Origin: a virus
IMG/VR virus record: IMGVR_UViG_3300032249_001192
Coordinates: 5,524-69,523 of that record
DNA: 64,000 nucleotides
Strand: one strand, 5' to 3'
Position 1 is the first letter of the stretch. Each line of letters begins with the position of its first letter. The translations under genes were made by a program, and so were the position numbers. Positions 21,016-59,914 of this stretch are shown piece after piece. The notes below the pieces were generated by a model, which saw nothing but the letters and a program-made list of their open reading frames with translations, was not told the origin of the DNA and did no database searches.

Positions 21016-21127
21016 AATATTACTTTATTTATTATTTAGAGAATATTGGTATTAAGTGTAATTTTTCTTCTACAATTCTTTCAATTGATTTACCGCTAAA
21101 CCACTTTATGCTCATGTTATCCTGCTT

Positions 21128-35095: not shown

Positions 35096-35096
35096 A

Positions 35097-35300
35097 TTAT
35101 GTTTTCTTTAGATACTCATCAGTGTCGTAACACTTCCATGTTTTATGACTTTCAAAACCACTTTCGCTAACACAAATTTTTGGTCCTGTTAAAAAACCTC
35201 GACCTTTAAAATGATATAATGCTGCCAAGATTGCTGATATAGGATCATTACAATCAATAATGTATTTTATTTGACCAGACTTTACATAATATTTGGGCAT
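35097..35300 (-). CDS. Hypothetical protein
   Basis: 67 aa ORF, tight spacing. Confidence 0.55.
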   Translation of the reverse strand: MPKYYVKSGQIKYIIDCNDPISAILAALYHFKGRGFLTGPKICVSESGFESHKTWKCYDTDEYLKKT

Positions 35301-35301
35301 G

Positions 35302-35832
35302 TTATACCGAGAAAAAATACCATCTTTTATGAGTATCTATATTTTCTGATGTGTGGATATGTGACAGATAGCTTTTGATATCATCCCAAGAAGAAAAAAT
35401 AGTTTGATGGGGCACTGTTCCAAATAACCAGTCTGGTGCATTTATCTTACCCTGTTCCATATGAATTATGATAGGTTTTTTCTGACGATTAGCCCAAAAA
35501 ATTTCTTCATAGGTTCCACACGGATGGATATCTAGATTAAGATTTACAACCAAAAAATCACTAATATCTACAAGTCTTAGATCTACCCTTCTAATAACTT
35601 TCATCATTTCTGAAAGCTCATCATATCTTTCTGTTCTCTTTAGCTTAGTTTTAACTGCGTGAGAGTCGCTATCTTCCATGCCTGTATTTGTTGGCTTGGT
35701 AATAGGATTAAAGACTATGGAACCCATTTCTTCAAGAAATGGAGTAATATTATCTCTCCAAGTAGCTCCACGATCAGCCACTCTATCCATAGCCCCGGCT
35801 AAATAAACTCTTTGATTCTTCAATCTATTCAT
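35302..35832 (-). CDS. Nucleoside 2-deoxyribosyltransferase-like / nucleotide N-glycosidase
   Basis: VYLAGAMD, FNP, DLRLVDISD, GTYEE. Confidence 0.8.
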   Translation of the reverse strand: MNRLKNQRVYLAGAMDRVADRGATWRDNITPFLEEMGSIVFNPITKPTNTGMEDSDSHAVKTKLKRTERYDELSEMMKVIRRVDLRLVDISDFLVVNLNLDIHPCGTYEEIFWANRQKKPIIIHMEQGKINAPDWLFGTVPHQTIFSSWDDIKSYLSHIHTSENIDTHKRWYFFSV

Positions 35833-35840
35833 ATTTAAAA

Positions 35841-35987
35841 TTAGTAACGATCAGTAAATAAAAAGGTAAATAAGTTTCTTGATGAATATAGTTTACTACA
35901 ACTAGATCTATCTTGAATTTTGTATTGAGCATCAATGAAACCGAATACAATAGAAACAAACAAAAAGAACAATATAATTTCAATCAT
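35841..35987 (-). CDS. Small membrane protein (48 aa, not in ORF track)
   Basis: MIEIILFFLFVSIVFGFIDAQYK...TDRY*; ATG overlaps the upstream stop (ATGA) and the ORF fills the gap. Confidence 0.55.
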   Translation of the reverse strand: MIEIILFFLFVSIVFGFIDAQYKIQDRSSCSKLYSSRNLFTFLFTDRY

Positions 35988-36706
35988 GGTTTTAAATATC
36001 CAATATAGTTTCGTCTCATTCTGTTAACCTCGTCAACCATCTCTTGCAAGTGTTCTGGATCAGTAGACCTACCCGTTGGGTTGTGGTAATACAAACCGAC
36101 TGGATGGTTGATCATTTCTATTCTAGCACCTCCGACGGCGCAACGCAACCAAAAATCTCCATCTGCAGCTGTTTTATAGTTTTCATCAAAATATCCGAAT
36201 CTATCATGTAAATTACGTCTCCATAATGGCATACAATGAGGAGAATTATTTCTTAATAGATTCTCAAACGAATGAGGAAGACAGGGGTAAATTTGATTAT
36301 ATGTATTGTCTTCATATCTCTCATTTGCTTCTGTGGAAACATAAGTAATCCCGTATGCTATGTCTAATAAAGAATTCCTGTCAAATGCTTTAAGTAAAAT
36401 ATCTATACTGTCAGTATTTTTGCGATCATCAATATTCCAGTTTCCTATTATAGACGACGAACATAGACCAATAGCAATGTTCCATGCAGCATATAATCCT
36501 GGATCTTTTTCTAGTTGGTAGTATTTTACATTTTTGAACTTTTGTGTAATAGGCAGTATCTGATTTTTTTCATTATCTGGTGAGTTGCAGTCTAAAAAAA
36601 TAAATTCAATATTATCAAATACAGACTGTCGTAGCATATCATTGAGATATCCCTCAATAAATTTTTCACCTTTATAAAACGAACAAAATATTGAACATTT
36701 AAACAT
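35984..36706 (-). CDS. GT2 glycosyltransferase
   Basis: FLDCNSPD, GLYAAWN, NWNIDDR, GYFDE...DGDFWLR. Confidence 0.88.
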   Translation of the reverse strand: MFKCSIFCSFYKGEKFIEGYLNDMLRQSVFDNIEFIFLDCNSPDNEKNQILPITQKFKNVKYYQLEKDPGLYAAWNIAIGLCSSSIIGNWNIDDRKNTDSIDILLKAFDRNSLLDIAYGITYVSTEANERYEDNTYNQIYPCLPHSFENLLRNNSPHCMPLWRRNLHDRFGYFDENYKTAADGDFWLRCAVGGARIEMINHPVGLYYHNPTGRSTDPEHLQEMVDEVNRMRRNYIGYLKP

Positions 36707-36709
36707 ATA

Positions 36710-37813
36710 TTAGTTCTGTTTGAGGAAGTGTATGATCTTGTCGCAGATAAAACTAATTTGACTTTCGCTAAGGGTAGGATATGATGGCATTATTAAACAT
36801 TGGTTTTGTAACATTTTTGAGTTGTCATTAGATATGCATCTGGTAGACTTTAGATATTCGTGTTGATGTATATCGTAAAACATTGGCCTTGTATCTATTC
36901 CCGCTTCATACAAATATAATTCGAGTGATTTTTTCTTTTCTAAATCAAAATCTACAAATCTCATTCCAAACATCCAATTAGAATGAGAGGTGTCAGGATC
37001 TGTATTCTGGAAAGATATGTTAGATCTGTTTAAGATAGATTTATATTGCTTAAAAATGTTCTTTTTTTGTTTTACAATCCAGTCTAAGTCGTTTAATTGG
37101 CCATATAATATAGCGGCTTGTATATTTGTCATTCTATAATTATAACCAATATAGTCGTGAATGAATTTTTTATGGGATTGTCCTTGATTTTTTACTGTAT
37201 TAATATAAGAGAAAAGTTCATCATCAGAAGTTATAAAAGCACCACCTTCTCCGCATGTTATTGTTTTATTACCAAAAAAAGATACTGACGAAGCAAAACA
37301 TTCCGATCCGGATGGTTTGTCTCCATATGATCCCAAGAAGCCTTCGCAATTATCTTCTATAAAAACAGTATTTGGGAATTTTTGTTGTAGTTTTGGAACA
37401 TTGATAATATTTCCAATATTATGTACTATCAACACTGCAGTTTCTTCATCTAAATACTCTTCCAGATAAGAGTCCTCAAAATTCCAAGTACTTAAATTGG
37501 CATCTATCGCTATTAGTTCGTATTTTTGAGTATATAAAAAAGCATTCCATGCCGCTACATATACATTATTTGGAACAATAATCTTTTTTATAGACGGATA
37601 TTTATACTGTAATGCCAGAGCTAATAGGTGAGTTGCTGTAGTTCCATTATTTGTTAGTATTATTTTATGATTATTGTATTGGGCTTTTGATTTTAATAGA
37701 TTTTTTGTTAAATCTAGGTATTCTCCTTGAGATGATATCCATCCACTATCTAGTGCTTTATGGGCGTGTTCTAGATTGTTTTTAGTCAGATATGGTTGAT
37801 ATATGGGTATCAT
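36710..37813 (-). CDS. DegT/DnrJ/EryC1/StrS aminotransferase (perosamine synthase-like)
   Basis: GWISSQG, NGTTATHL, IEDNCE, SFFGNKTITCGEGG, GYNYRMTNIQAA. Confidence 0.93.
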   Translation of the reverse strand: MIPIYQPYLTKNNLEHAHKALDSGWISSQGEYLDLTKNLLKSKAQYNNHKIILTNNGTTATHLLALALQYKYPSIKKIIVPNNVYVAAWNAFLYTQKYELIAIDANLSTWNFEDSYLEEYLDEETAVLIVHNIGNIINVPKLQQKFPNTVFIEDNCEGFLGSYGDKPSGSECFASSVSFFGNKTITCGEGGAFITSDDELFSYINTVKNQGQSHKKFIHDYIGYNYRMTNIQAAILYGQLNDLDWIVKQKKNIFKQYKSILNRSNISFQNTDPDTSHSNWMFGMRFVDFDLEKKKSLELYLYEAGIDTRPMFYDIHQHEYLKSTRCISNDNSKMLQNQCLIMPSYPTLSESQISFICDKIIHFLKQN

Positions 37814-38406
37814 TTTATTTTTTGGATATGAGCTAGTCCCGTACTATCAGGTATAACATTTATTAGTTTAAAGTTAGTGTTGTTAGTATCCTGTAAATAT
37901 CTTTGAATAAAGTTACCCCTACCTTCTGGAACACTCCAGTCATGTAGTAATAGATTACAGCCTATTTTGATCTTGTCTTCTAAAAATTTAAAAGACTGTA
38001 CGTTTTCTGACACATTGTAATTTTGTATATATGCACTAATATTAAGCTTATGTAATCCGTTTGGTAGTTCATCTCCTCCATCTAGCAAAATTAAGTCAAC
38101 AGAATTCAAAAATTCATAGGATAAATTTTTTAATCCGTCAATAAAAGAAGTATTATAAAGTTTGATATTATTGGTATAACTACTATTATCGTAAAAACGT
38201 TTAGCCACCTCGTAGAAGCTATGGTTTTCCTCAAAAGTATATAATATTCCTCCTGTTTCAGATAAACCTTTGACAAGACTTAGTGTGCTACCACCACCGT
38301 ACCAAGTTCCTGATTCGATAGCCTGCTTACTGTTAGTGTTTTTAACAGTATTGTATATGTATTCTTTTTCCTTTATTGACATTTGTCCTAGCGGGATTGT
38401 GTTCAT
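37810..38406 (-). CDS. Class I SAM-dependent methyltransferase
   Basis: IESGTWYGGGST, LILLDGG, LLHD. Confidence 0.75.
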   Translation of the reverse strand: MNTIPLGQMSIKEKEYIYNTVKNTNSKQAIESGTWYGGGSTLSLVKGLSETGGILYTFEENHSFYEVAKRFYDNSSYTNNIKLYNTSFIDGLKNLSYEFLNSVDLILLDGGDELPNGLHKLNISAYIQNYNVSENVQSFKFLEDKIKIGCNLLLHDWSVPEGRGNFIQRYLQDTNNTNFKLINVIPDSTGLAHIQKIK

Positions 38407-39846: not shown

Positions 39847-40497
39847 TTAAATATTGAAAGAATTTAAGTATTCAAACTGATCTTTGGTTTTTATGTAATG
39901 AAATGAAATATGTTCATGGGGTTTCTGAATACCATAAAATTCTGGTGGTTGAGAGTACACTCCTGGTAAATTTTCATTAATAATACCAGCCTGTCTACCT
40001 ATAAGTCCTATAGCAACATCGGAGTATACTAAACTATTTAGCTCACCTATAGTATATTGATTATGAGCACACAAAGATTTAAGAGAAACCTTATTAAACA
40101 AAATTCCTCCACCTCCAAGAACATAGAATAAGTTTCTATCATTTGGCCAAGTATTGCTTACTTGTCCATATATTCTATTATCATATTTGTTTAATGTTTC
40201 TATGATAGAATCTAAATTATTTACATAAACGAAAACATCGTCACCAATAAAGAAAAACCAATCAAACCTATTTATATGATTATCTAAAGCATAATACATA
40301 GCATAAAAATTTTTATACATACTAGACAGGTAGTCGTCTCTGTCTGTGCAGCAGATGTAGTTGGGCCTGTTATCTATTCTGTCTGTAATATGAAATATGT
40401 TTTGATTTTTTGCCCAAGTGTCATCTATTAGACGACATCTATCTAGGTGTTTATGTGTTGTAAAAGTATAGAATCCACAATTAGTTAATATTTTCAT
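39847..40497 (-). CDS. GT31 Fringe/core-1 beta-1,3-galactosyltransferase-like protein
   Basis: DWFFFIGDDVFVYVNNL, YVLGGGGILF, SDVAIG, ISFHYI parallel the C1GALT1/Fringe motifs DWFLKADDDTY, YMSGGAG, EDxxxG, SFHY. Confidence 0.75.
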   Translation of the reverse strand: MKILTNCGFYTFTTHKHLDRCRLIDDTWAKNQNIFHITDRIDNRPNYICCTDRDDYLSSMYKNFYAMYYALDNHINRFDWFFFIGDDVFVYVNNLDSIIETLNKYDNRIYGQVSNTWPNDRNLFYVLGGGGILFNKVSLKSLCAHNQYTIGELNSLVYSDVAIGLIGRQAGIINENLPGVYSQPPEFYGIQKPHEHISFHYIKTKDQFEYLNSFNI

Positions 40498-42561: not shown

Positions 42562-45237
42562 TCAATTGATATACACTCTGGTTGACCTAGCGCTACTTGC
42601 ACCAGCCACATTTACTGATCTAATAGAAATATCATAATTTTTACCTCTCGTTATTGCGTAGCCGCTATTCCCATAGATAGTATAGTATAAATTTGCATGA
42701 GGAGACGAATAATTATCCCATCCTATTGGGGTGGATCCTTGGTCTTTAGCACCAGCACCAACAAATATTTGACCAGTAATAGAAGGGTCCTCTACTTGTG
42801 TAAAATTAATCAAGTATTGATAAACACCAGTTGTAAACATGTTAGGCCATTGCAGATTCACTATTGTTCCAACAGAATTTGGAAAATTAGATGATGCAAT
42901 TAATGATGGTGGGGCGGATGGTAACTCTGCATACTCGGCATAGAATTGCAATTCATTTCCGTCGCCTCTTGAATTGTTTGGAATAATGCGAATTCTATAA
43001 GGATTACCAATTGTGGATGTGGGAATAATACATTTCCATTTTGAAATACTATAATCAAAACCTATATTAGTAGTAGTTAATGTTGGAATACTAGATTGCC
43101 ACCAGTCTCCATTTGTTGCCAATTGATATTCACAACGGTAAGATACCGGAGCAACATTTTCTCCATAATAGTCTGGCGGAGCTGTCCATAAAACAGTCAG
43201 AGAATTTGAGTTTCTATTAACTGAAACATTCTTAGCATTAATAAGAAATCTATACCTACCAAGGTAGTAAGAATATCCAAATTCAAATGCATTTTGCACA
43301 TTGGTTGCTAAATAATTATACAGATTAAGATTAACTATTGAATTATTATCATTATTAACCGAACCAGGTCTCCCAGCAAAACTATACGGGACTATAGTAA
43401 CAGGCGTACAATAAGGACCAACGTTTCCGTTACTATAAACTGGAGCGATTGATATTGAATACGTTACTCCGCCTTTAAGCATTCTAACTCTATATCCATA
43501 TGATGTTATTGCTTGTAAAACTCCATATTGATTAGCATATGGGTATGGAGGAGGATTAGAATCCCAATATGAAAGACCATTAATTACCCTGTATGAATTG
43601 TTGTTATCCCAATTTATGATATATTCTTGTTTAGATGGATCTGGTTGAATAATATTATTGACTTCTGAAGCGGTAGAACCGTAAGCTCCTCTTGGATCTA
43701 TTGGTCCTCCTGCTATTTTTATTTTCCAAGAAAGAGGATATCCTATTTTAACAATACCTGATGACCAAGATATGTCTATTTCGGCGCTATTATATCGCGT
43801 ATCAGTAACAGATAAACTGCCTAATACTAACCTAACGGACAAATTCGATGCTCTTTGAGCTAGCGTTTCAGTTGGGGTTACTGTTGGTGTTGGTGTTGTT
43901 GTTGGGGTTAATGTTCTTGTTCTTGTTGGGGTAGCTGTTGGAGTTAATGTTCTTGTTATTGTTAGAGTAATTGTTGGGGTGGTTGTTGGGGTTGTGGTTA
44001 TTGTTGGAGTTATTGTTGGAGTAGAAGTTTTTGTTATCGTTGGAGTCAGTGATCTAGTTGGTGTTTGTGTGGCTGTTATGGTTGGTGTTGTTGACGATGT
44101 TATTGTTGGTGATGGCGTCGGAGTTGGAGTTCTGCTAGCGTCTGGTGTTGGAGTAATTGTTGGAGTTCTTGTTGGGGTTACTGTTTTGGTTGAACTGATG
44201 GTAATTGTTGGAGTAACAGATGGTGTAATTGTTGGCGTTTTAGTTGCCGTAATTGATGGAGTAGTAGTTGGAGTATTTGTTCTTGTTGGTGATACCGACG
44301 ATGTTATTGATGGCGTAACTGTTGATGTTGCAGTTATTGTTGGTGTTACCGTTGATGTTGGGGTGACACTTGAGGTTATGGTAAGAGTAGGCGTTACTGT
44401 AATGGTCGGAGTAGTAGTTGGCGTTGGAGTTATAGAGGACGTTACTGTTGGTGTAACGGTTGGTGTTGCTGTTATAGTCGCTGTTGGAGTTGGTGTTTCA
44501 CTTCCGGTAATTGTTATGGTTGGAGTCAACGAAGACGTTGGAGTAATTGACGGCGTTTGTGTTTGCGTGGCTGTAATTGTTGGTGTTTGACTTGGAGTAC
44601 TTGTAATCGTACTTGTTACAGTAGGAGTTATAGTACAAGTTGGTGTTGGTGTTGTTGTACAGGTACTGGTTGCTGTTGGCGTTATTGTCGATGTTGGTGT
44701 GCTAGTATTAGTTAAAGTTATGGTTTGGGTGGGTGTTTGAGTTGGTGTCGATGTTTTTGTTGGTGTTAGTGTTGGTGTTGTGCTAGCACCCGGAGTGGGG
44801 GTCCTTGTGGGTGTAGCTGTTCTAGTAGGTGTTTTACTCCTGGTAATTGTTATTGAAGGAGTTATAGAGGAAGTTACAGTACTAGTTGGAGTTACACTAG
44901 GAGTAGTTGTAATTGTTGAAGTTATGCTAGGAGTAATAGTGGGAGTGGCCGTTATTGATGACGTAATAGTAATGGTGGGAGTAATAGTGGGAGTAATAGT
45001 GATTGTTGTAGTTGGAGTTGGGCTGCGTGTTGGGGTTTTTGTAGGGGTTTTAGTAGGTGTAGGAGTTCTACCTGTACGTGTTGGTGTTCTTGTCGTAGTT
45101 ATCGTTGGAGTTATTGTTTGGGTTTTGGTTGGGGTTCTTGTTGGAGTTGGAGTTTTTGTTGGAGTTCTGGAGGGACCAAGACCAACATCACTCAATGCCT
45201 TTTCACAATTATTACAGTCGTTTGGTGACATAGTCAT
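42562..45237 (-). CDS. Mucin-like Thr/Pro-rich stalk protein with C-terminal FN3-like domains
   Basis: About 430 aa of TPT/TPS repeats, then beta-sandwich segments ([27 protein letters not shown]); no signal peptide. Confidence 0.8.
43861..45180 (-). repeat. Degenerate low-complexity repeat encoding (T/S)PT(x)T units
   Basis: Codon-diverged GTTGGTGT/GTTGGAGT-rich tract on the plus strand. Confidence 0.85.
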
Positions 45238-45429: not shown

Positions 45430-47088
45430 ATGAAATCAACCATAGTTACCGGCATATGGGATTTGGGTAGAGATTCTCTGTCTGATGGCTGGAGCAGATC
45501 ATTTGATCATTATAAAGAAAAATTTGCTGTATTACTTGATTCTTTACAAAATATTCCAACTATAGTTTTTATAGACAAAAAACATGAAGATATAGTATGG
45601 AATCATCGTAATAAAGAAAATACAGTAGTATACCACCATACTGCTAATGATTTTGATAATAATTTTTTCCCTTTCAGAGATAAGGTAGAAAAAATAAGAA
45701 CTAGCGAGCAGTGGTTATGTCAAGCAGGATGGCTCAGAGAAAGCACTCAGGCCAAATTATCTCTCTACAACCCAATGGTTATGAGTAAGATGTTCCTACT
45801 GCACAATGCCAAGGTATTTAATCCATTTAATACTGAATATATGTACTGGCTTGATGGTGGAATATCTAATACTGTTCACCCAGGATACTTTAGCCACGAC
45901 AAAGTCTTAGAAAAAATACAAGATATCACTAAAAAATTTCTATTTGTTTGTTTTCCTTATGAAACAGAATCAGAGATTCATGGATTCGATATAAAGAAGA
46001 TGAAAGAATATGCTAAATCAGAAGAGGTTAGTAGGGTTGCTAGAGGAGGATTTTTTGGTGGACATATTGACTATATAGCTGAGGCTAATAATCTATATTA
46101 TAGTCTATTAAGTGATTCTCTTAATAATGGTCTTATGGGTACTGAAGAAAGTATATTTACCCTAATGACATACTTGCAACCAGAAACCTACCAGCATGAA
46201 ATGATTAATCATGATGGTTTGTTGTCTACATTCTTCGAAAAAGTTAAAAATAATCAAACTATTATAGAAGAAACCGTAAAAAATAATCCTAGAAAAAAAC
46301 ATTCAAACAACGAAACAATATTATACATTAATGCTTTTAATTCTCCAGAACAATTACAAATGGTCTTGGATAGTTTTGAACTACATGATAACTCATTTAT
46401 TACTCAAACAAAAAAGATTCTAATAAACAATAGCACAAAAGAAGATCTCTTCAGTAAGTATGATGCCATTTGCGAAAAATACGGATTTTCAGAGCAGATT
46501 AAAAAAGGAAATTTAGGAGTTTGTCGAGCTAGACAATTTGCTGCTGAACATTTTGCAGACCTTGGTTCTAAATACATGATCTTTTTTGAGGATGACATGT
46601 TGTTAGATTATTCTATATCTAATTGTAATTTTGGTTTTAAAAAATCGACACCTAATTTATTAAGTAGTCTTATTCGTATAATGGACAATGAAGAGTATGA
46701 TTTTTTGAAATTTAGCTTTAGCGAATTTTATGGACATAACGGAGAACAGTGGAGTTGGCATAATGTTCCTTCAGAATTACGGGTAAAATATTTTGGAGAC
46801 GCAAAGAAAAAACCTCTCACCAAGTTTTCTTGCATAAAATCTTATAATGGCATACCTTATGCAGAAGGGGAGATTTACTATTCAAATTGGCCCCATATAA
46901 TAGATCAGGAAGGCAACCAAAAACTATTCTTAGATACTACATGGTCAAATCCTTTTGAACAAACGTGGATGAGTCACATATATACTCTAACAATTAACAA
47001 TAAAGTTAAACCGGCAATATTATTAGCTAGTCCAATAACACATAATAGGGTTCATTTTTATGAAGCGAACGAACGCAAAGAAAACTAA
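45430..47088 (+). CDS. HtrL/YibB-like domain fused to a GT2-like domain
   Basis: TIVTGIWDLGR, YWLDGG, GGFFGG, GTEESIF (HtrL-like); C-terminal FFEDDMLL. Confidence 0.75.
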   Translation: MKSTIVTGIWDLGRDSLSDGWSRSFDHYKEKFAVLLDSLQNIPTIVFIDKKHEDIVWNHRNKENTVVYHHTANDFDNNFFPFRDKVEKIRTSEQWLCQAGWLRESTQAKLSLYNPMVMSKMFLLHNAKVFNPFNTEYMYWLDGGISNTVHPGYFSHDKVLEKIQDITKKFLFVCFPYETESEIHGFDIKKMKEYAKSEEVSRVARGGFFGGHIDYIAEANNLYYSLLSDSLNNGLMGTEESIFTLMTYLQPETYQHEMINHDGLLSTFFEKVKNNQTIIEETVKNNPRKKHSNNETILYINAFNSPEQLQMVLDSFELHDNSFITQTKKILINNSTKEDLFSKYDAICEKYGFSEQIKKGNLGVCRARQFAAEHFADLGSKYMIFFEDDMLLDYSISNCNFGFKKSTPNLLSSLIRIMDNEEYDFLKFSFSEFYGHNGEQWSWHNVPSELRVKYFGDAKKKPLTKFSCIKSYNGIPYAEGEIYYSNWPHIIDQEGNQKLFLDTTWSNPFEQTWMSHIYTLTINNKVKPAILLASPITHNRVHFYEANERKEN

Positions 47089-48376
47089 AGCCAAGACTCA
47101 AACAACTAAAAAGAGTAATAAAGTAGAGACTATTTTTATTCAGATAGCTTCATATCGAGATCCTCAACTCCTTCCAACCTTAAGAGATTTGTTTAGTAAA
47201 GCAAAAAATCCAAGCAATATCACCGTTGGAATATGCTGGCAACATTCTCCAGAGGATACATGGGACGTACTAGCGGAGTTTGAGAACGATCCAAGAATAA
47301 AAGCTATAGACATAGACTATAAAGATAGTCAAGGTGTTTGCTGGGCCAGAAATTTGGTTCAGTCTCTATATGATGGAGAAACATATACTCTACAACTAGA
47401 TAGTCACCACAGATTCGTTCAAGACTGGGATGAAATTCTAATAGATATGCTAAAAGGTTTACAAAAAGATGGATACAATAAACCGTTAATAACAGCATAT
47501 ATACCCAGCTTCGATCCAGACAATGATCCCGCATCTAGAGTTCAAGAGCCTTGGAAAATGAATTTTGACAGATTCATTCCTGAAGGAGCAGTTTTCTTTT
47601 TACCTGCCTCTTTTGATTCTTGGGACGATAAAACCAAACCTCTTCCAGGCAGATTTTATAGTGCTCATTTCGCTTTTAGTGTAGGAGCATTTTGTAAGGA
47701 GGTTCCTCACGATCCTCAGTATTATTTTCATGGTGAAGAAATTAGTATTGCCGCTAGAGCATATACTCATGGGTACGATATATTCCATCCTCATAAGGTT
47801 GTCTGTTGGCATGAATATACCAGGAAAGGAAGAACCAAGCAGTGGGATGATGATAAAAAATGGGGTGACAGGAATAATATCTGTCACCTAAGAAACAGAA
47901 AATTGTTTGAAATGGATGGAGAAAAAAGAGATATAGATTTTGGCCAATATGGTTTTGGCACAGTAAGATCTTTGAGAGATTATGAAAAATATAGTGGATT
48001 ATCATTTGGTAAAAGAGCTATACAAAAAAGAGTACAGGATCATCAAGCACCACCAGATCCAGAAACGTCCTATCTAACCGATGAAGATTTTGATAAAAAA
48101 CTGTTAAGAATATTCAAACACTGCATAGATATTCAATATGGTCAAGTACCAGAAAATGATTATGATTTTTGGGCTGTTGCTTTTAAAGACAAAGAAGGCC
48201 AAGATATATACAGGCAGGACGCAGATAAAGATGAAATATTACGTATTAAAAATGATCCAGATGGATATTGTAAGGTGTGGAGAGAGTTTCAAACAGAAGT
48301 TAGCCCAACAAGCTGGTTGATTTGGCCTCATAGCTTATCAAAAGGATGGGCAGAACCGATTATAGGATATCTGTAA
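47060..48376 (+). CDS. GT60-family polypeptide N-acetylhexosaminyltransferase (Skp1 GlcNAc-T/Gnt1-like)
   Basis: IFIQIASYRDP, GVCWAR, LQLDSHHRFVQDWD (DxH), SAHFAFS, EVPHDP..YFHGEEISIAARAYTHGYD. Confidence 0.88.
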   Translation: MKRTNAKKTKAKTQTTKKSNKVETIFIQIASYRDPQLLPTLRDLFSKAKNPSNITVGICWQHSPEDTWDVLAEFENDPRIKAIDIDYKDSQGVCWARNLVQSLYDGETYTLQLDSHHRFVQDWDEILIDMLKGLQKDGYNKPLITAYIPSFDPDNDPASRVQEPWKMNFDRFIPEGAVFFLPASFDSWDDKTKPLPGRFYSAHFAFSVGAFCKEVPHDPQYYFHGEEISIAARAYTHGYDIFHPHKVVCWHEYTRKGRTKQWDDDKKWGDRNNICHLRNRKLFEMDGEKRDIDFGQYGFGTVRSLRDYEKYSGLSFGKRAIQKRVQDHQAPPDPETSYLTDEDFDKKLLRIFKHCIDIQYGQVPENDYDFWAVAFKDKEGQDIYRQDADKDEILRIKNDPDGYCKVWREFQTEVSPTSWLIWPHSLSKGWAEPIIGYL

Positions 48377-48385
48377 AAACATTTT

Positions 48386-48997
48386 ATGCAAATATTCTCA
48401 AATATTAGTGCTATTGGAGATTCTCATGTTGGTGCTTTTTCACCATACTGTAGATTGTGTACTCTTGGTCCAGTTACCATGTATTCGTTGACAACAGATA
48501 AGCTTAATGAATATATTGTTTATTTACTTGAACGAAAAGAAATAGATATTAATGGCTGGTGGATTTTTTGTACCGGTGAAATAGATATAAGATGCTTATT
48601 GTACAAACAAATAAATGAGTACGGCAGAAAAGAGGACGAGACTATAGAAACATTAGTAGATAATTATATCTCTAGTCTATATAAGCTGAATCACGCAAAG
48701 TTAGCCATATCAACCACAGTACCTCCTGCAAAAACAGAAGGTTTTGAAGTTCAACAAAAACATACCATCAATTCTGACTATCCTTTTAAGGGATCAGATT
48801 CAGAAAGAAACAGATGGTCTAAAAAACTAAATCACTATCTAATAAATAAGTGCATAGAAAAAAACATTACTTATTTAGATATATACTCTCTATTCAAAAA
48901 CAACGAAGGATTTTTAGATCATCAATATATAGACGCAGATATGATACATGTTTCAAAAAATGATAAAATCGTCACACTACTTAATAATTTATACTAG
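48386..48997 (+). CDS. SGNH-hydrolase-like protein
   Basis: IGDSH, GEIDIR, DMIH (DxxH). Confidence 0.7.
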   Translation: MQIFSNISAIGDSHVGAFSPYCRLCTLGPVTMYSLTTDKLNEYIVYLLERKEIDINGWWIFCTGEIDIRCLLYKQINEYGRKEDETIETLVDNYISSLYKLNHAKLAISTTVPPAKTEGFEVQQKHTINSDYPFKGSDSERNRWSKKLNHYLINKCIEKNITYLDIYSLFKNNEGFLDHQYIDADMIHVSKNDKIVTLLNNLY

Positions 48998-49005
48998 GAG
49001 AAACT

Positions 49006-49746
49006 ATGAATTTACTTTCCGCTCTGACAACATATGATGTTAATTCAAATAAAATAAGAATAGGTAATCAGCATGATGGTGGATATATTATCAATGATCT
49101 CATAGTTAAAAATACCAAAAGATTGATTTCTGTAGGAATAGGCGGAGAAGACAATTTTGAATTACAGTGGGCAGAAAAATTCCCAACAACATCCATAGAA
49201 GCATACGACGGAACGTACCCATGTAACAATTTGTGTAATAAATTTCCTGATAGAATTAACAAAAACATTTTTTACGTTCATAATGACGTTGGTTTTGGAG
49301 AAAAACAAATTCCTCTCAATACAATCGTAGATAGCAAAGAAGGAGTTTTATTAAAAGTTGATATAGAAGGTGGCGAATATACTGCATTTGATAATTTATA
49401 TCCAGACAGTAATCTAACAGGACTCATCTTAGAAGTCCACGATTTACATATACCTGAGAATTGTCAAAAAATAGCAAAAATAATAACTGAAAATTTCAAA
49501 AACTTGCTTCTTTTCCATGTTCACGGAAATTCGTGGGGAGGTATGTTTGATTTGAACTTGACACCCAGTGTCAATGACGGTATACTAATCAAGAGGTTCC
49601 CTCATGTGCTAGAACTTACATTCATATCAAAGCATATTGTGGATAATTACTCTCTTGAAAAGGGTAAATTCCCTGTAGACGGTTTGGATAATACTAACAG
49701 ACATGATTTTCCTGATATAGATCTTTATTGGATAAATGCTATATGA
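49006..49746 (+). CDS. FkbM/Methyltransf_22-like methyltransferase
   Basis: RIGNQHDGGY, LKVDIEGGE, LEVH, HVHGN. Confidence 0.8.
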   Translation: MNLLSALTTYDVNSNKIRIGNQHDGGYIINDLIVKNTKRLISVGIGGEDNFELQWAEKFPTTSIEAYDGTYPCNNLCNKFPDRINKNIFYVHNDVGFGEKQIPLNTIVDSKEGVLLKVDIEGGEYTAFDNLYPDSNLTGLILEVHDLHIPENCQKIAKIITENFKNLLLFHVHGNSWGGMFDLNLTPSVNDGILIKRFPHVLELTFISKHIVDNYSLEKGKFPVDGLDNTNRHDFPDIDLYWINAI

Positions 49747-50603
49747 TATACATATCACTATGTGCCATGCCAGATAGACTAGAGACTAAAGATAGTTCGT
49801 CTCAGTGTTTATCTTCTTTATTAGAACAAGAAACAACCCATGAATATAAAGTTCTTTTGAATATTCCTTTAAAATTAAGGAACTATGAAAATACAACTAT
49901 ACCACAATGGGTATTGGATTTAGAAGTAGCATATAATGGTAAGCTTATTATTCTTAGAGACGATATAGACTATGGACCAATATCTAATCTATTGTCTCCC
50001 ATTAAGCTAATAAGTATGGATCCAAATGATATTATTATTATTTGCGATGATGATCATATGTACGACCCAAAGATGATTGAATACCATCTTAAAAAGCTGC
50101 AACAATATCCTGACCATCATGCTATTTGTTTTAGAGGGAATCAACCACTAGAACTAAGAACGTGGTATATAGATAACGTTAAATATGGTAAACTCTATAA
50201 TTCGTGTGTTTTATTTCCAACAAGAAATGATATTTATTTAAAATTGCCTGATCATTGGCATAGCGTATCGTATCGTAGAAAGTTTATTCAACAAGATATT
50301 TTTGATCAAGATTTTTTAAATATATCTTGGAATAACGACATTTTAATGGGGTGCTATGCATGGTCTCATGACTTTTATTTTTTATGTGCTAACTACGATC
50401 AAGAGAGTGATTTTAGACCCGTTAACTATGATGGTCGAGGAGCTAATTCTTTCCCTTTAATGAAGATGCTTCCATTTTCTGGAGACAGTGGTTGCAATAG
50501 ATGGAGGAATCAAAATAAGAAACCGGGTGAAGATATATGGGATTTAGAAAAATTTCGACAACTATTTGATAAGGATAAAGGAATAATACAATTATGGAAA
50601 TAA
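49728..50603 (+). CDS. GT-A-fold glycosyltransferase
   Basis: ISLCAMPDR, DYGPI, IIICDDDHMY; paralog of the next gene. Confidence 0.7.
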   Translation: MDKCYMIYISLCAMPDRLETKDSSSQCLSSLLEQETTHEYKVLLNIPLKLRNYENTTIPQWVLDLEVAYNGKLIILRDDIDYGPISNLLSPIKLISMDPNDIIIICDDDHMYDPKMIEYHLKKLQQYPDHHAICFRGNQPLELRTWYIDNVKYGKLYNSCVLFPTRNDIYLKLPDHWHSVSYRRKFIQQDIFDQDFLNISWNNDILMGCYAWSHDFYFLCANYDQESDFRPVNYDGRGANSFPLMKMLPFSGDSGCNRWRNQNKKPGEDIWDLEKFRQLFDKDKGIIQLWK

Positions 50604-51366: not shown

Positions 51367-51747
51367 ATGAAATACTTTTATTGTGTTATTTTAACGGTTG
51401 TTTTATCCCAGAACGTCTGCGCTCAACAGTGGTCTAATCCTGAAAATGCTAATCTTACAAATAGTATGACAAATTTAATGGTTAATTTTGGCATTGCAGG
51501 AATGCAAACGGCACAACCTTCTTTAGCAAATAATACTAATTCATATTTAGATTATCAAAATGGATATTATCAAGAACTACAAAATAGTTTAACTAAAACT
51601 GAAATATATTTTCAAAAAAGACAAACTAATATGTACTACAGAGAACTTGAAGTTATTCAAAAACGAGAACTTAAAGATCTTAAAAAATATAATCAGTTGA
51701 CGATACCAGAACTAAATAGGATTTTTGATAGAGATATCAGAAACTAA
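51367..51747 (+). CDS. Exported hypothetical protein
   Basis: Signal peptide MKYFYCVILTVVLSQNVCA; Q/N/Y-rich helical body. Confidence 0.6.
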   Translation: MKYFYCVILTVVLSQNVCAQQWSNPENANLTNSMTNLMVNFGIAGMQTAQPSLANNTNSYLDYQNGYYQELQNSLTKTEIYFQKRQTNMYYRELEVIQKRELKDLKKYNQLTIPELNRIFDRDIRN

Positions 51748-52679
51748 AATACCGGATTAATAATTCCATATCCTTGGTACTTTCTTATTCCTTTATATCT
51801 AGGATTTTCTAAAGAAATAGCATGTAGTTTAAATACTTCTATATAGTCTTCGTATGTTTTAAGTTGATATTTTTTATGCTTATTATTATAGCTTAATAAT
51901 AAAGAAGCACAACCAACCACAAATGGATTACTCATGCTGGTTCCACTCATACTAGCATATCTATTTCCTGGAACACATCCAATAATATTGTGACCAGGAG
52001 CTAAAAAGTCTAAATCATCTCCACTACAAGTAAATGAAGTACGATTCATATTTTCGTCTATCGCCCCTATAGATATAGTATTTTTATATCTAGCAGGATA
52101 CATTATCTCAGCATTCTCTCCGCTATTTCCAGCAGCGCAAAAAACAACACATCCCTTACCATTAGCATGTGTTATAGCCTCCTCTATAGCTTTTGATGGT
52201 GCGGGTGAACCAAGGCTCATGGTTATAAAATCTACATCTCCGTGATCTGCAGCCCAGTAAATCCCATCTGCAACTGTGTTCATTGATCCTGACCCATCGT
52301 CTCCAAGTGATTTAATCGGAATAATTTTAGTCATAGGAGCAACGCCAACCATACCAAAACCATTATCTGATGCAGCTATTGTAGAAGCAACATGGGTTCC
52401 ATGCCCAGCGCCGTCTATTGGTTCTTTATTTTGGTTAATAAAGTTTTTCCCGGGTAATAAATTATCTACTAAGTCTTTATGAGTTAAATCACATCCTGTG
52501 TCTATAACAGCTACGACCACTCCTTCTCCTTTAGATTCTTTCCATAGATTCGGTATATTAAATTTTGTAAGTTCCCACCCTTTGAATTGTGGATCATTTA
52601 CAGATAGTCCATATACATCTTCTCTGACATATGGTAATAGAGAGATATTGTTTTTCTTTTTAAAAAAACCTCTAGTCAT
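51744..52679 (-). CDS. Subtilisin-like (S8) serine protease
   Basis: VAVIDTG, HGTHVA, AAGN, SGTSMS. Confidence 0.95.
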   Translation of the reverse strand: MTRGFFKKKNNISLLPYVREDVYGLSVNDPQFKGWELTKFNIPNLWKESKGEGVVVAVIDTGCDLTHKDLVDNLLPGKNFINQNKEPIDGAGHGTHVASTIAASDNGFGMVGVAPMTKIIPIKSLGDDGSGSMNTVADGIYWAADHGDVDFITMSLGSPAPSKAIEEAITHANGKGCVVFCAAGNSGENAEIMYPARYKNTISIGAIDENMNRTSFTCSGDDLDFLAPGHNIIGCVPGNRYASMSGTSMSNPFVVGCASLLLSYNNKHKKYQLKTYEDYIEVFKLHAISLENPRYKGIRKYQGYGIINPVF

Positions 52680-52681
52680 GA

Positions 52682-53428
52682 TTACTCCTTAGTTTTTGCT
52701 AATATTTCTGTTATCCATTCAACATGATCGCTAATTCGCGTATGTCCACTTTCTGTACCGTACGTTGATCGTACAGCACCCTTTTCATGTATTACACAAG
52801 AATTAATTCCTGCTATTTTGTTGTCTATAAATAATCCACCACCACTATCCCCACTCCCTATACAAAACTCAAGTTCTGTTCTATTAGATCTAGAAGGAGA
52901 ACATATTAAAAGTCCCCGATCAATTCTATCTACAATATTAGATCCTGCTCTTTTTTTATCGTCAGAAATATTTGCACCAGTTAGAAAAGTTCCGGTAATC
53001 CCATAACCGGAGATAGAGCAAACTTTACCAGTTTCATTAGTTTTTGTATATAGCTCAGGATACCAATCTAATCCAATATTTTCTTCTAAAAAACATATTG
53101 CAATATCGTGATAACCAAATTGATCAGAATTATATTTGGGATGAATAATAATTTTAGCCACTTTTATATTTTTACCATTTATTTCAACAGCACAATCTAT
53201 AATATCTTCTACCATATGGGCAGCAGTTAATACTACTTTATCTTTATGTGCAACTCCAGAACCAAAAAAGGGTTTAGTGTCTGGCATTTTCCCTTTTACT
53301 TTAGAAACATAAACGAACTTGGATCCGTATGAGACATATTTAGAGTCTGGAGTATTAGGGTCTATGGTTCCAGAATAAGCTACAGAACCTATCAAGAATA
53401 CTACTAAAGATAGTAAAAATTGACGCAT
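52682..53428 (-). CDS. Exported trypsin-like (S1) serine protease
   Basis: Signal peptide; LTAAH, DIAI, GDSGGG. Confidence 0.92.
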   Translation of the reverse strand: MRQFLLSLVVFLIGSVAYSGTIDPNTPDSKYVSYGSKFVYVSKVKGKMPDTKPFFGSGVAHKDKVVLTAAHMVEDIIDCAVEINGKNIKVAKIIIHPKYNSDQFGYHDIAICFLEENIGLDWYPELYTKTNETGKVCSISGYGITGTFLTGANISDDKKRAGSNIVDRIDRGLLICSPSRSNRTELEFCIGSGDSGGGLFIDNKIAGINSCVIHEKGAVRSTYGTESGHTRISDHVEWITEILAKTKE

Positions 53429-53735
53429 GGTTTTGCACTTTAAGAGAGTAGGGGCGATTCTTAACCTTATTTAAATACACCGAGCAATCATTAATCACAT
53501 CAACATTCCAACTACTATAATCCATTAAATGGCCAAAAATAAAATGACAATTAGGACATAAAGTAATAAGATTAGTTAAATCCAACTCTCTGCTTGGATT
53601 GACATGAAAAGGCTCTATATGATGTACCTGAATTTTTTTGCATGAACCGCAAGCCATGCAGCAGGGTTGTGATAGTAGGTGTTTTTTTCTTACTGATGTC
53701 CATTCAGGAGATCTGTCGGATAAAATATTCCACAT
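53355..53735 (-). CDS. Small HNH endonuclease
   Basis: CMACG...VHHI...NLITLCPNCH. Confidence 0.85.
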   Translation of the reverse strand: MWNILSDRSPEWTSVRKKHLLSQPCCMACGSCKKIQVHHIEPFHVNPSRELDLTNLITLCPNCHFIFGHLMDYSSWNVDVINDCSVYLNKVKNRPYSLKVQNHASIFTIFSSILDRFCSLFWNHRP

Positions 53736-54311: not shown

Positions 54312-56771
54312 TTATACAATAGGATTATGCTCAAAAAAGTAAACATCTGAGTCAGCAACAACCCCATTATTAGTTACTCTACACCACAGCTTATAGTAAC
54401 CTCTGCAACTCCTATTAAACCTAATACTATTTGGATCTAATGTATCAATGGAATTAGGTATAGATCGCGTCCAACAAGGAGAAGTAAGCATAATGGGAGA
54501 AGTCGGGGATGAGCAATCTCTATCATAGTATATGGCCCACCATTCATATATTGTATTTCCCTGTGGGTTCTGAATAGTAGAGCTTACACTAAACACATCA
54601 CCATCTCTAGTAATATCAGAATTTAATGGATCAGTTATGATGCAATCACTGAGACATCGTGGGAATTGATCACTCCGTGGGTGAAACTGATTACCGTTAC
54701 ATCCATTAGTGGTCGTATTGTTTTTTGTAAAAGATATCGTGGTTGGCGGACAAATAAATGACCCCGCAACAACAATATCGTTAGGTATACATACCGCTAA
54801 TACAATATTATTGGATGGATTTTTTAAGACTACTCTTCCAATACCATTATGACACCTTTCCCCCGCACAAACCAGCTTTAATTCTGTTAAACTACTTGTT
54901 ATTATATGATTATTTATAGTAAAAACACCCTCTCTATATCCTCCGTCACCAGCATTATTTAAATTAGCTTGTCCTATTAAAATGTTATCTATATAGAAAT
55001 CAAAAATAGCTCTATTACAACTATGTCCGCCTCCGCAATTAACTGGATCATATGAGACTATTGCGGTATAGCCATACAGATCAATACCTGCAGCTAAACA
55101 TACTTCTGGTTGTGGTGGGGGTGGGGGTGGCGGCACCGCAGGTATTATTATATCTCTAATATTAGATCTTGAACAACAAGTTCTTCCCCCAATACGTAAC
55201 TGTATATTAGATGCTCTATTCCCTCCTGGAGATATTATAGAGTTTGGTATGTATAGTTTGAGAATTTTGTGATCACAACCAACAACTGCTGCTCTAGTAG
55301 GATTCGGAGTTTTTGTTACTGTGGGTGTTAGCGTTATTGTAGATGTTACCGTAGGAGTAGCCGTAACAGTTGGAGTTGCTGTTGACGTAGTTTTAATGGT
55401 GGGAGTAATCGTTAAAGTTGGAGTTGGTGTTGGAGTTGATGTTTGCGTTGCTGTGACGGTTATTGTTGGTGTTGGTGTGGGGGTAGAAAATAGACCATCT
55501 CCCACACTATTTGCACTAACACAGGTTGGATCACTATCGCTTTGAGTAGCATACTTCCAATATCCAGCATTGGTTCCTCCACCCTTATAATATGCTGCTT
55601 TATACCATTCGTTTTCCGTTGGAATGTGGTATTTTGCGCCAGGATTCCTAGCCACAGCATCTCCGGTAGTACTGCCATTTAAAGTATAGGCTCCGTCTTC
55701 AGTAGTGCTGCTGTTTTGAGACCCAGTTGGTTTTCCGTTATGTAGCCAATTACAATATCTTGCACAGTCAAACCAGCTTACATATATTACCGGCTTGTTT
55801 CCGTAATTAGTTTTTACTGAGTAAGTGTAGCTTCCACTAGCTCCTGATCTATTGATCGCCGACCCCTGAATCGAATTACTCGCCATATTGACATTGTAAA
55901 GAGCATACGAGTCAGTTGCGGCAACAGCATTCAAAAATTCAACATATTCACTATTAGTAACAAGATATTTTCCCACGGCGTAGCTGTAACCAACACTGCC
56001 TCTTCCAACTCTTCCTCCAGTATCAGGAGAGTTGTTAACATCACCCACAGTCACAAAGTTAGAAAGGACTAAAGGATTAAGTATGGAGAAGGAACTGGCG
56101 ATACGAAAACCGATGATATTGATCACTTCCGACGTGGTGGAGGCGGGTAGGCCGAGGGAGGGCGACGCCAAGTAGAATGCAGCAGCATCGCCCCAATAGC
56201 CGCCCCGCAACTCGCGAGCTGAATCATTCCACTCATAGACTTGCCCAATTTGATCATAAGTACCATATGCACTAGGTCCACCATTAGTTCCAACAGAGGT
56301 GACATTGCCATTTTTACCATCCCAATCAGCACAATAATTAAAATTAGCAGAGTTAGATCCCGGACACAATGAGTTAAATACTAATCTGTTATTTCCTCCC
56401 ATATATCCATGGTAATAACAGTAATAGCTTAATTCTGGTGGTTGTGCTCCTACTCCATTAACAGTAATTGTTACATTACCATAGTAAAAGTCATATGACA
56501 CTCCACCAACTGTTTTTGTTAGTTTATTATTAACGTCTCCAGAATATGATATAAATGATTCATAGCCTGAGTTTAAAATTGCAATAGGATGAGCAGAGGG
56601 GACTCCTGTTAAAGTATATGTACCTATTTGATATCCTAGTTTATGATCAAGATTATTAGGATCAAAACCCGGACCCTCTGCAAAAGTAAAGTTGTAATTT
56701 CCTTCAACAGCGGATACTGCTGTATTATTTCTCATACATCTAATTATCATGGTATAATATCTCCAAAACAT
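54312..56771 (-). CDS. Modular adhesin-like protein: cupredoxin-like, circularly permuted FGE-sulfatase (CLec) domain, Thr/Pro linker, Cys-rich domains
   Basis: HP...YYCYYHGYMGG; FGE motifs GQVYEW, RGG.W, IGFR, GKYLVTN.EY, PV.YVSWFD, PTENEWYKAAY; TPT tract; polyproline stretch. Confidence 0.8.
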   Translation of the reverse strand: MFWRYYTMIIRCMRNNTAVSAVEGNYNFTFAEGPGFDPNNLDHKLGYQIGTYTLTGVPSAHPIAILNSGYESFISYSGDVNNKLTKTVGGVSYDFYYGNVTITVNGVGAQPPELSYYCYYHGYMGGNNRLVFNSLCPGSNSANFNYCADWDGKNGNVTSVGTNGGPSAYGTYDQIGQVYEWNDSARELRGGYWGDAAAFYLASPSLGLPASTTSEVINIIGFRIASSFSILNPLVLSNFVTVGDVNNSPDTGGRVGRGSVGYSYAVGKYLVTNSEYVEFLNAVAATDSYALYNVNMASNSIQGSAINRSGASGSYTYSVKTNYGNKPVIYVSWFDCARYCNWLHNGKPTGSQNSSTTEDGAYTLNGSTTGDAVARNPGAKYHIPTENEWYKAAYYKGGGTNAGYWKYATQSDSDPTCVSANSVGDGLFSTPTPTPTITVTATQTSTPTPTPTLTITPTIKTTSTATPTVTATPTVTSTITLTPTVTKTPNPTRAAVVGCDHKILKLYIPNSIISPGGNRASNIQLRIGGRTCCSRSNIRDIIIPAVPPPPPPPQPEVCLAAGIDLYGYTAIVSYDPVNCGGGHSCNRAIFDFYIDNILIGQANLNNAGDGGYREGVFTINNHIITSSLTELKLVCAGERCHNGIGRVVLKNPSNNIVLAVCIPNDIVVAGSFICPPTTISFTKNNTTTNGCNGNQFHPRSDQFPRCLSDCIITDPLNSDITRDGDVFSVSSTIQNPQGNTIYEWWAIYYDRDCSSPTSPIMLTSPCWTRSIPNSIDTLDPNSIRFNRSCRGYYKLWCRVTNNGVVADSDVYFFEHNPIV

Positions 56772-58912: not shown

Positions 58913-59914
58913 TTACAATACTTTCGCAGCTATTAAGCATCCTTTTGATACTGAGTGCAAAGGATCGGCAGCGTGCTTAACTTCTTTAATAGATAAAGGA
59001 AAATTATTCTCTAATAGTTTTTTCTTAAAGTGTTCAATATAACCACCTGCTTGGGATGTGCCACCAGCTATTACTATTGTTAGAGGTTCTTTAAACTTAG
59101 GCAAAGACTTATGATCGGTAAGTGCTGCTGATAATTGCTTGGTAGTATAATCTATTAAACGATCATAATAAGAAGATATAGCAGCTAAAATAGGGCTATC
59201 ATTATGCTGACCAACATTAAAATTCCCACCCTCCTTCTCAGCCTGTACAACACTATCTGGTTCTCCCGTGGCTACTGCGCTCATTCTGTCAACCCAATCT
59301 CCAGACTTTGTTGTAGAAAATACAACAGTCGGCTCACCATTTAGCATGACGCAAACATTAGTCATACCCGCACCACAGCTGATAGCTATTCCAGTATAAT
59401 CGTTATCTGCTAACTCAGCATAACACAAGGCTTCTGCTTCGTTAATTGATTTAGCATCATAGCCACAACTATCCAAGATAGTTTTTACCACATCTTCATG
59501 ATATCCAACATCAAAATCTTCATCTTCTTGGTCTACTGGTTGAGCAGGGACGCAGAAAACAATCTTTTCAAGGGGCTCTGAAGATTGCCCGACTACTTCC
59601 TTTAAAATAAAAGCCAATACTCTTTTTGCATCCTTCTCTTTTGCTGAAACCACTCCTTTAAACATGGGTCTTTTAGCATTGTCATTTCTTTCAATAGCTT
59701 TTTCTATAGCGTCTTGTCCAAGAATAATAAAAGATCCGTCTGCATCTTTAATAAAAACTTTACCAGCTAGACCCTTCTCTATCATCTTCGTTGCTACAGG
59801 AGTAGCCGGTTTAATGATATAAAAAGCATCTCTAAAGTCTTTATATTGTACTTTATTTTCTTTGTCTTCTGATAATACAATATAACTTGTTCCTACATCC
59901 AAACCCTTTGCCAT
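58913..59914 (-). CDS. Actin-fold ATPase (MreB/FtsA/MamK-like)
   Basis: Phosphate-1 GLDVGTS, VFCVPA, connect-1 INEAEA, phosphate-2 ISCGAGMTN, adenosine IAGGTS, connect-2 DPLHSVSKG. Confidence 0.85.
   Translation of the reverse strand: MAKGLDVGTSYIVLSEDKENKVQYKDFRDAFYIIKPATPVATKMIEKGLAGKVFIKDADGSFIILGQDAIEKAIERNDNAKRPMFKGVVSAKEKDAKRVLAFILKEVVGQSSEPLEKIVFCVPAQPVDQEDEDFDVGYHEDVVKTILDSCGYDAKSINEAEALCYAELADNDYTGIAISCGAGMTNVCVMLNGEPTVVFSTTKSGDWVDRMSAVATGEPDSVVQAEKEGGNFNVGQHNDSPILAAISSYYDRLIDYTTKQLSAALTDHKSLPKFKEPLTIVIAGGTSQAGGYIEHFKKKLLENNFPLSIKEVKHAADPLHSVSKGCLIAAKVL

Follow-up and report, generated by a model that had tools for sequence, protein, structure and literature searches.

The stretch of DNA analysed here (64,000 nt, hereafter 'the window') is part of the IMG/VR virus record IMGVR_UViG_3300032249_001192 (69.5 kb, estimated to be ~50% complete) and carries phage hallmark genes encoding a DnaB-like helicase, a UvsX-like recombinase, a ribonucleotide reductase, a clamp loader and a prohead protease. 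Its reverse-strand gene P0001 encodes a modular protein (Table 1) in which the region 55494-56354 (-), i.e. aa 140-426, had been described by an initial annotation as a circularly permuted formylglycine-generating enzyme (FGE)-sulfatase/C-type lectin (CLec) domain: the part that closes canonical domains of this type (here termed 'C-half') stands first and the part that opens them ('N-half') stands second. We could establish by sequence comparison that the two halves are swapped, that both are homologous to the halves of close canonical relatives, and that the family to which they belong is large; on the whole of the evidence presented below, we consider aa 140-429 of P0001 to be very probably a genuine circular permutant of the FGE-sulfatase-type C-type-lectin-like fold.

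Order of the two halves in P0001 and their predicted fold

The assignment of the region to the FGE-sulfatase/CLec group was borne out by a scan of the whole protein with PF03781 (E 8.5e-16, 58.8 bits against a cut-off of 23.3), which matched in two stretches, and the motifs quoted for the region are present in the translation as written. When scanned alone, aa 130-240 aligned to positions 159-191 of the 255 profile positions (E 8.8e-4, 19.4 bits, under the cut-off by itself), and aa 236-430 aligned to positions 33-132 (E 3.8e-14). Since profile positions 159-191 precede positions 33-132 along the protein, the order of the halves is swapped, and P0001 fails to produce a colinear N-to-C match over the whole profile. 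Two partial matches in swapped order, as the permutation claim had it, were likewise returned by a profile built on an alignment of 84 family members (hereafter A1), all of which (84/84) match PF03781 and only one of which matches another family (fn3). In sequence searches against the PDB, query residues 28-68 aligned to residues 187-235 of pFGE (1y4j) and query residues 118-222 to residues 17-141 of the same chain; at the profile level, A1 positions 53-115 aligned to pFGE 197-266 (whole-protein E 5.3e-10), positions 22-114 to TvpA 183-291 and positions 43-114 to PvdO 196-283, with A1 positions 145-284 aligning to the N-terminal parts of all three chains. As a control, the canonical proteins P0251 and P0233 gave one colinear PF03781 stretch each (profile 34-254 and 20-254 of 255), and in the permuted proteins P0154 and P0153 the best stretch covers only profile positions ~27-133. 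No entry of Pfam, NCBIfam or PHROGs matches the permuted unit over its whole length (partial matches only), and a tblastn search of the domain against 50,697 deposited phage genomes (a set that may leave out the window's own record) returned no match at E 1e-5.

Modelling with AlphaFold2 on A1 (84 sequences) rendered the 316-aa region as one compact domain, with a mean predicted local distance difference test (pLDDT) score of 89.4, a predicted template modelling (pTM) score of 0.90 and 232 residues at pLDDT >= 90; on the single sequence, the pLDDT was 29. Foldseek searches of the model against the PDB and against BFVD found nothing at E <= 0.001, a null result that says little for a permuted fold with few regular secondary-structure elements. 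An exhaustive structural search over 48,161 chains had its top 13 rows filled by FGE-fold proteins: in the solved chains, the N-terminal part pairs with model residues ~100-300 and the C-terminal end, including that of TaqVP, with model residues ~10-99 (e.g. model residues 10-97 align to EgtB-IV 8vig 336-441, with a root-mean-square deviation of 1.8 A over 78 aa, and residues 11-96 to Mtd 1yu0 266-374). Among the nearest structural relatives are proteins that are not enzymes, such as TvpA and PorK; the PDB matches contain no solved permuted relative. The two halves are thus predicted to fold together as one compact domain in which each half would match the opposite end of solved FGE folds. Of the two contrary outcomes that the initial annotation had named, canonical order of the profile matches was ruled out, and halves that are remnants of two tandem domains are highly improbable (see below).

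The modules that flank the domain recur elsewhere. The segment aa 1-135 is a shuffled module, homologues of which are carried at different positions by other permuted-FGE proteins (P0021, 2174-2300; P0071, 668-797; P0042, 1751-1865); the cupredoxin-like label that it had been given remains putative, as a Pfam scan of this segment retrieved nothing credible and the Atlas yielded a weak lead (score 0.76, to a cluster with Copper-bind in 17% of its members). The first ~200 aa of the C-terminal region constitute a further shuffled module, which adjoins permuted FGE units elsewhere too (homologous stretches in P0139, P0098, P0205 and P0123); for the region as a whole (aa 496-819) no credible Pfam match was found, and all of its Atlas structure matches had TM scores < 0.5. 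The mucin stalk proposed to follow the domain can be read off the translation as a Thr/Pro-rich stretch, matched over aa 430-493 by PHROG 15511 (Thr/Pro-rich, function unknown), and no signal peptide is visible in the translated sequence. With regard to the gene start (56735-56771), the annotated ATG at 56771 (-) overlaps the end of the upstream gene by 25 nt, the Atlas version of the protein begins at Met8, and Met13 would lie past the upstream stop codon, so that the start is uncertain by up to 12 codons.

Table 1. Coordinates of P0001, its parts and the neighbouring genes discussed in the text (positions are those of the window).
Feature	Coordinates	Strand	Description and basis
P0001, whole gene	54312..56771	-	819 aa, modular: N-terminal domain, permuted FGE/CLec domain, Thr/Pro stalk, Cys-rich C-terminal region; open reading frame list and translation
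N-terminal domain, aa 1-135	56367..56771	-	Module recurring elsewhere; sequence comparison
C-half, aa 140-226 (NSANF...IGFRIAS)	56094..56354	-	Equivalent of the closing ~95 residues in canonical FGE-fold domains, here first; sequence and structural matches
Most variable segment of the family, aa 193-220	56112..56195	-	Between the RGGxW motif and the GFR strand; column entropy on A1
Linker, aa 227-238 (SFSILNPLVLSN)	56058..56093	-	Connects the GFR strand (old C-terminus) with the FVTVGD strand (old N-terminus)
N-half, aa 239-429 (FVTVGD...GDGLFS)	55485..56057	-	Equivalent of the opening ~190 residues in canonical FGE-fold domains, here second
Thr/Pro-rich mucin-like stalk, aa 430-495	55287..55484	-	Read off the translation
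Cys-rich C-terminal region, aa 496-819	54315..55286	-	With a poly-Pro tract; translation
Protease and HNH endonuclease genes	51744..53735	-	Just downstream of P0001
P0002	56747..58909	-	720 aa, neighbour of P0001
Actin-like gene	58913..59914	-	333 aa
Repeat-encoded Thr/Pro-rich gene	42562..45237	-	891 aa
Glycosyltransferase-like genes	16801..22051; 32916..38406; 39847..40497; 45430..50603		At least 10 genes

Cut site, repeating unit and distribution of the permuted form

With the canonical relatives P0251 and P0233 (~348 aa), P0001 shares 55-61% identity over its N-half and 46-49% over its C-half. The N-to-C junction of these relatives, GDG-(~11 aa)-NFANF, coincides exactly with the new C-terminus (...SVGDG) and the new N-terminus (NSANF...) of the P0001 domain, which points to a clean cut within one loop, i.e. 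a loop of ~10 residues in the canonical relatives that we read as lying at the surface. The old termini (GFRIAS and FVTVGD) are bridged in P0001 by 12 residues (projected C-to-N gap 11 aa). P0001 therefore presents the sequence traits by which natural circular permutants are generally recognised, in that both segments are homologous to canonical parts, their order is reversed and the old termini are joined by a short linker.

A HMMER search of the full library with the 301-aa region retrieved 8190 proteins at E <= 0.001 (2626 at E <= 1e-30), among which tandem arrays of 2-11 units are common. As canonical arrays hold the same C-to-N junction, the two pieces could also be the tail and the head remnants of neighbouring tandem FGE domains, i.e. 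a decayed array and not one domain. The halves were mapped one by one in P0001 and the best 150 of the 8190 homologues (151 proteins), with C and N denoting their order along the chain. The C-first proteins comprise 32 CN, 21 CNCN and 5 CNCNCN arrangements: in all single-unit members (32/32) the C-to-N junction measures 5-20 aa and the flanks are arbitrary and unrelated, in the arrays it measures 2-61 aa (mostly 8), and the N-to-C junctions of C-first proteins span 4 to 490 aa. Because C-to-N junctions are short and N-to-C junctions variable, the repeating unit of these proteins is C-then-N. By the same logic, the unit of the N-first proteins (43 NCNC and 6 NCNCNC) is the canonical one, since their N-to-C junctions are contiguous (-27 to +14 aa) and their C-to-N spacers variable (2-2205 aa). 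Furthermore, a search limited to proteins of 165-527 aa recovered many stand-alone permuted domains, namely proteins of 300-350 aa whose colinear alignment spans 96-99% of the query at 50-72% identity. Neither half has a spare copy elsewhere in the window (one copy of each; best other match E 0.21). The conservation of C-then-N as an autonomous module, the dozens of stand-alone proteins, the confidently predicted single domain and the absence of the missing partner halves from the window all speak against a pair of remnants, which we hold to be highly improbable.

A related alternative is a domain-swapped oligomer, in which each half is completed by its counterpart from another chain or from an adjacent unit. 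Phage fibre proteins are usually oligomers, and tight CNCN arrays with N-to-C gaps of 4-10 aa (P0009, P0047 and P0004) could pair in either phase; against this, the monomer is modelled with confidence, and the C-to-N linker is conserved at 8-11 aa whereas the N-to-C spacers are arbitrary, so that we consider such swapping improbable.

The distribution of both forms was assessed by pattern scans of IMG/VR, which returned 68 loci, and of GTDB genomes, from which loci were taken as the best 80 of 611 confirmed matches (79 of them distinct, under a ranking that would favour full-length colinear matches), with units classified in stop-to-stop open reading frames, so that the counts describe a sample and no census. 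On virus contigs, 86 units were permuted, 4 canonical and 13 unassigned, so that permuted homologues are abundant there. In the bacterial-genome loci, mostly from metagenome-assembled genomes of Planctomycetota and Verrucomicrobiota, 63 units were canonical, 1 was permuted, 3 were ambiguous and 28 could not be assigned; the sole permuted one is doubtful, being the last unit of an NCN protein in a locus (L134) that reaches the contig end.

The initial annotation had further proposed that the permutation, by moving the termini, enables the module to be placed within a long multidomain fibre. This purpose found no backing, for canonical units are also internal (with flanks of up to 851 and 1105 aa), and permuted single-unit proteins are mostly terminal or stand-alone: of 108, 71 terminate no more than 20 aa from the unit, 46 count as stand-alone and only 13 are flanked on either side by more than 50 aa; this set is biased to short proteins by the 165-527-aa length window, and in the set without a length limit 13/32 are internal.

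With respect to the origin of the permuted form, a two-half tree was computed from 46 permuted rows (the P0001 unit and a random 45) and 45 canonical ones, drawn from 151 de-duplicated clean single-unit proteins, of which the other 60 were left out. The quick IQ-TREE tree on both halves (277 columns) has 1 order change (Shimodaira-Hasegawa-like approximate likelihood ratio test support 88), a value that none of the label shuffles equalled or undercut (0/500); after removal of the columns by the cut and the linker, 2 order changes were counted. This topology is compatible with a single origin of the permuted form. Tandem duplication followed by trimming is the classical route to circular permutation, and the permuted form may have arisen in this manner, i.e. 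by duplication of a canonical unit and subsequent trimming at both ends; tandem arrays in both phases persist, and tight ones that hold the two phases at once (e.g. P0009, with N-to-C gaps of 6 aa) are plausible intermediates of such a route.

Putative function, gene neighbourhood and counter-evidence

In this arrangement, an N-G...YGxYDxxGxxxEW motif, the RGGxW motif, a variable loop and the GFR strand come first, followed by the 12-aa linker and by the conserved scaffold half. Column entropy on A1 has its smoothed maxima at aa 195-199 and 208-217 of P0001, and the variable part of the A1 profile is aligned by TvpA 183-291, i.e. by the C-terminal variable part of TvpA. We therefore take aa 193-220, on the strength of these alignments, to be the counterpart of the variable region that diversity-generating retroelements (DGR) target in CLec proteins, and presume that it forms the ligand-contact surface. 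The nearest relatives of P0001 are 80-83% identical to it in the N-half and only 54-63% in the C-half, and judged by such identities the C-half is the faster-evolving of the two. Exchange of the C-half as a cassette was considered and rejected: across 155 permuted units the identities of the two halves are correlated (r 0.64), and among the pairs with N-half identity >= 80% none falls under 53% in the C-half, a pattern of faster divergence with no obvious swapping.

Could the domain be an active enzyme of the FGE/EgtB/PvdO group, i.e. an oxidase with copper or iron as its metal and a phage or host molecule as its substrate? PF03781 membership and the source annotations of relatives ('formylglycine-generating enzyme') would favour such a role. 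On the other hand, Cys is absent from aa 148-326, so that the domain lacks the pair of catalytic, copper-binding Cys residues that FGE carries in its C-terminal segment; Pfam scans of P0001 found no DinB-like partner domain (as in EgtB or OvoA); no NCBIfam enzyme equivalog reached its threshold, the only match being GldK with 16.3 bits against a cut-off of 350; and the structural relatives include non-enzymes. An enzymatic role is accordingly one to which we assign very little likelihood.

A further alternative is a DGR target in which the variable region now leads the domain. DGRs most commonly target FGE-type CLec domains (PMC3521204), and the most variable columns of the family coincide with the equivalent of the DGR variable region. 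Nevertheless, the 69.5-kb record (which is only ~50% complete) has no PF00078 match to a reverse transcriptase, although control genomes do match, and no template-like repeat of nt 56094-56354, or of its variable segment, occurs elsewhere in the window; we regard this alternative as most unlikely.

The missing FGE Cys pair, the absent DinB partner and enzyme model, the variable loop, the fast-evolving C-half and the lack of a reverse transcriptase or template repeat lead us to favour, with some confidence, a non-enzymatic binding head whose specificity would reside in the loop aa 193-220 and would be diversified by ordinary divergence. The head may be displayed on the Thr/Pro stalk as part of a modular virion surface protein and may bind a ligand on the host surface; for display on the virion, which we suggest tentatively, as an even guess at best, we rely on four features: no signal peptide is visible, a Thr/Pro stalk is present, so are Cys-rich modules, and the flanking modules are shuffled among other permuted-FGE proteins.

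The genes around P0001 offer several observations in their own right. Two proteases, a subtilase S8 (E 9e-52) and a trypsin-like one (E 2.8e-15), are encoded just downstream, as is an HNH endonuclease. In the neighbour P0002, extended Thr/Pro tracts are accompanied by a ~130-aa Cys-rich module that starts with CCEW(D/N)G and is present twice; the protein matches no Pfam family, and its Cys-rich module recurs in two virus loci (L058 and L032). The gene directly upstream of the two Thr/Pro-rich genes P0002 and P0001 encodes an actin-like phage protein, with a full-length match to Volactin (PF25216; E 1.4e-65) and a weak one to MreB. A third Thr/Pro-rich protein is encoded largely by degenerate 12/18-nt repeats (families D1-D3) and also matches PHROG 15511. 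Moreover, the window holds at least 10 glycosyltransferase-like genes (GT2, GT4/GT1, Exostosin GT47, RgpF, Fringe-like, HtrL_YibB and phrog_24687), accompanied by a sugar aminotransferase, a dehydrogenase and O-methyltransferases. By its gene content this set looks like a large phage-borne glycosylation island, which could decorate the three Thr/Pro-rich mucin-like proteins of the window.

Several points weigh against the interpretation developed above. The claim that the domain has the same fold as solved FGE proteins rests on the pTM of 0.90 and on the separate match of each half, the aligners used being sequential. A FastTree phylogeny of the N-half (338 units, including tandem arrays) has 13 order changes and a 28-member canonical clade nested among permuted units, so that a single origin is not established. 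The neighbours of P0001 (proteases, HNH endonuclease, actin-like gene and clamp loader) are not tail genes, and the virion location is accordingly putative, as is the ligand of the domain.

A broader scenario would be that the permuted head is phage-specific and essentially of single origin, and that its fast-evolving ligand-contact segment, placed at the 5' end of the module ahead of a conserved scaffold, allows specificity to be altered with no DGR involved, through recombination or the replacement of a short piece at the front. This would amount to a second, retroelement-free diversification route for the same fold; we offer it as a speculation that is unlikely to hold in full.

Comparison with known systems

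The FGE-type C-type-lectin fold is the main programmable ligand-binding scaffold of phages and bacteria (by way of DGR targets) and is at the same time the fold of several enzymes. In Creative-Commons papers of PMC and in bioRxiv, including the covered portions of PMC7824862 and PMC3521204, we found no description of a permuted FGE domain. This study adds a junction-length test by which the unit is defined, the precise position of the cut relative to close canonical relatives, the viral-versus-bacterial tally, the tree and the variability map. The permuted form occurs in thousands of predicted proteins and, in the sampled loci, is almost confined to virus contigs; as canonical relatives and array intermediates persist alongside it, it offers a clean model for permutation by duplication and trimming. 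Since domain libraries give only a partial match, permuted proteins have been named 'formylglycine-generating enzyme', almost certainly wrongly, and a dedicated profile would correct many annotations of phage surface proteins and flag likely receptor-binding modules.

Among characterized proteins of the same fold, PorK/GldK of the type IX secretion system (9mzu; TIGR03525) has the canonical order and is a lipoprotein of the secretion ring, and P0001 scores far below the threshold of that model (16.3 vs 350 bits). FGE/SUMF1 (1y1e) and pFGE/SUMF2 (1y4j) are homologous to the P0001 domain by profile comparison (A1 vs 1y4j, E 5.3e-10), but P0001 differs from them by its swapped halves, by the lack of a Cys pair in the C-half and by its placement on a Thr/Pro stalk in a modular phage protein. 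Canonical order is also seen in TvpA (Treponema denticola variable protein 1, 2y3c), Mtd (1yu0) and TaqVP (5vf4); their variable region lies at the very end of the chain and owes its diversification to a reverse transcriptase and a template repeat, whereas P0001 carries its variable segment in front and has neither a reverse transcriptase detected in the record nor a template repeat in the window. The likeness is greatest to the canonical FGE-like proteins P0251 and P0233 (named 'sulfatase modifying factor 1' or 'formylglycine-generating enzyme'), which possess the same halves and the same conserved motifs, and whose aligned C-half, as in P0001, also lacks the FGE-type Cys pair. They differ from P0001 in that the N-half precedes the C-half, in having an N-terminal hydrophobic leader and a PEP-CTERM-like tail, and in belonging to bacterial genomes (Planctomycetota/Verrucomicrobiota and relatives) and not to virus contigs. 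Their tails match the PEP-CTERM profile over positions 1-24 of 24 with 16.7-17.2 bits (under the cut-off of 20.7), and their sequence features suggest that in bacteria these canonical counterparts are exosortase-dependent surface proteins.

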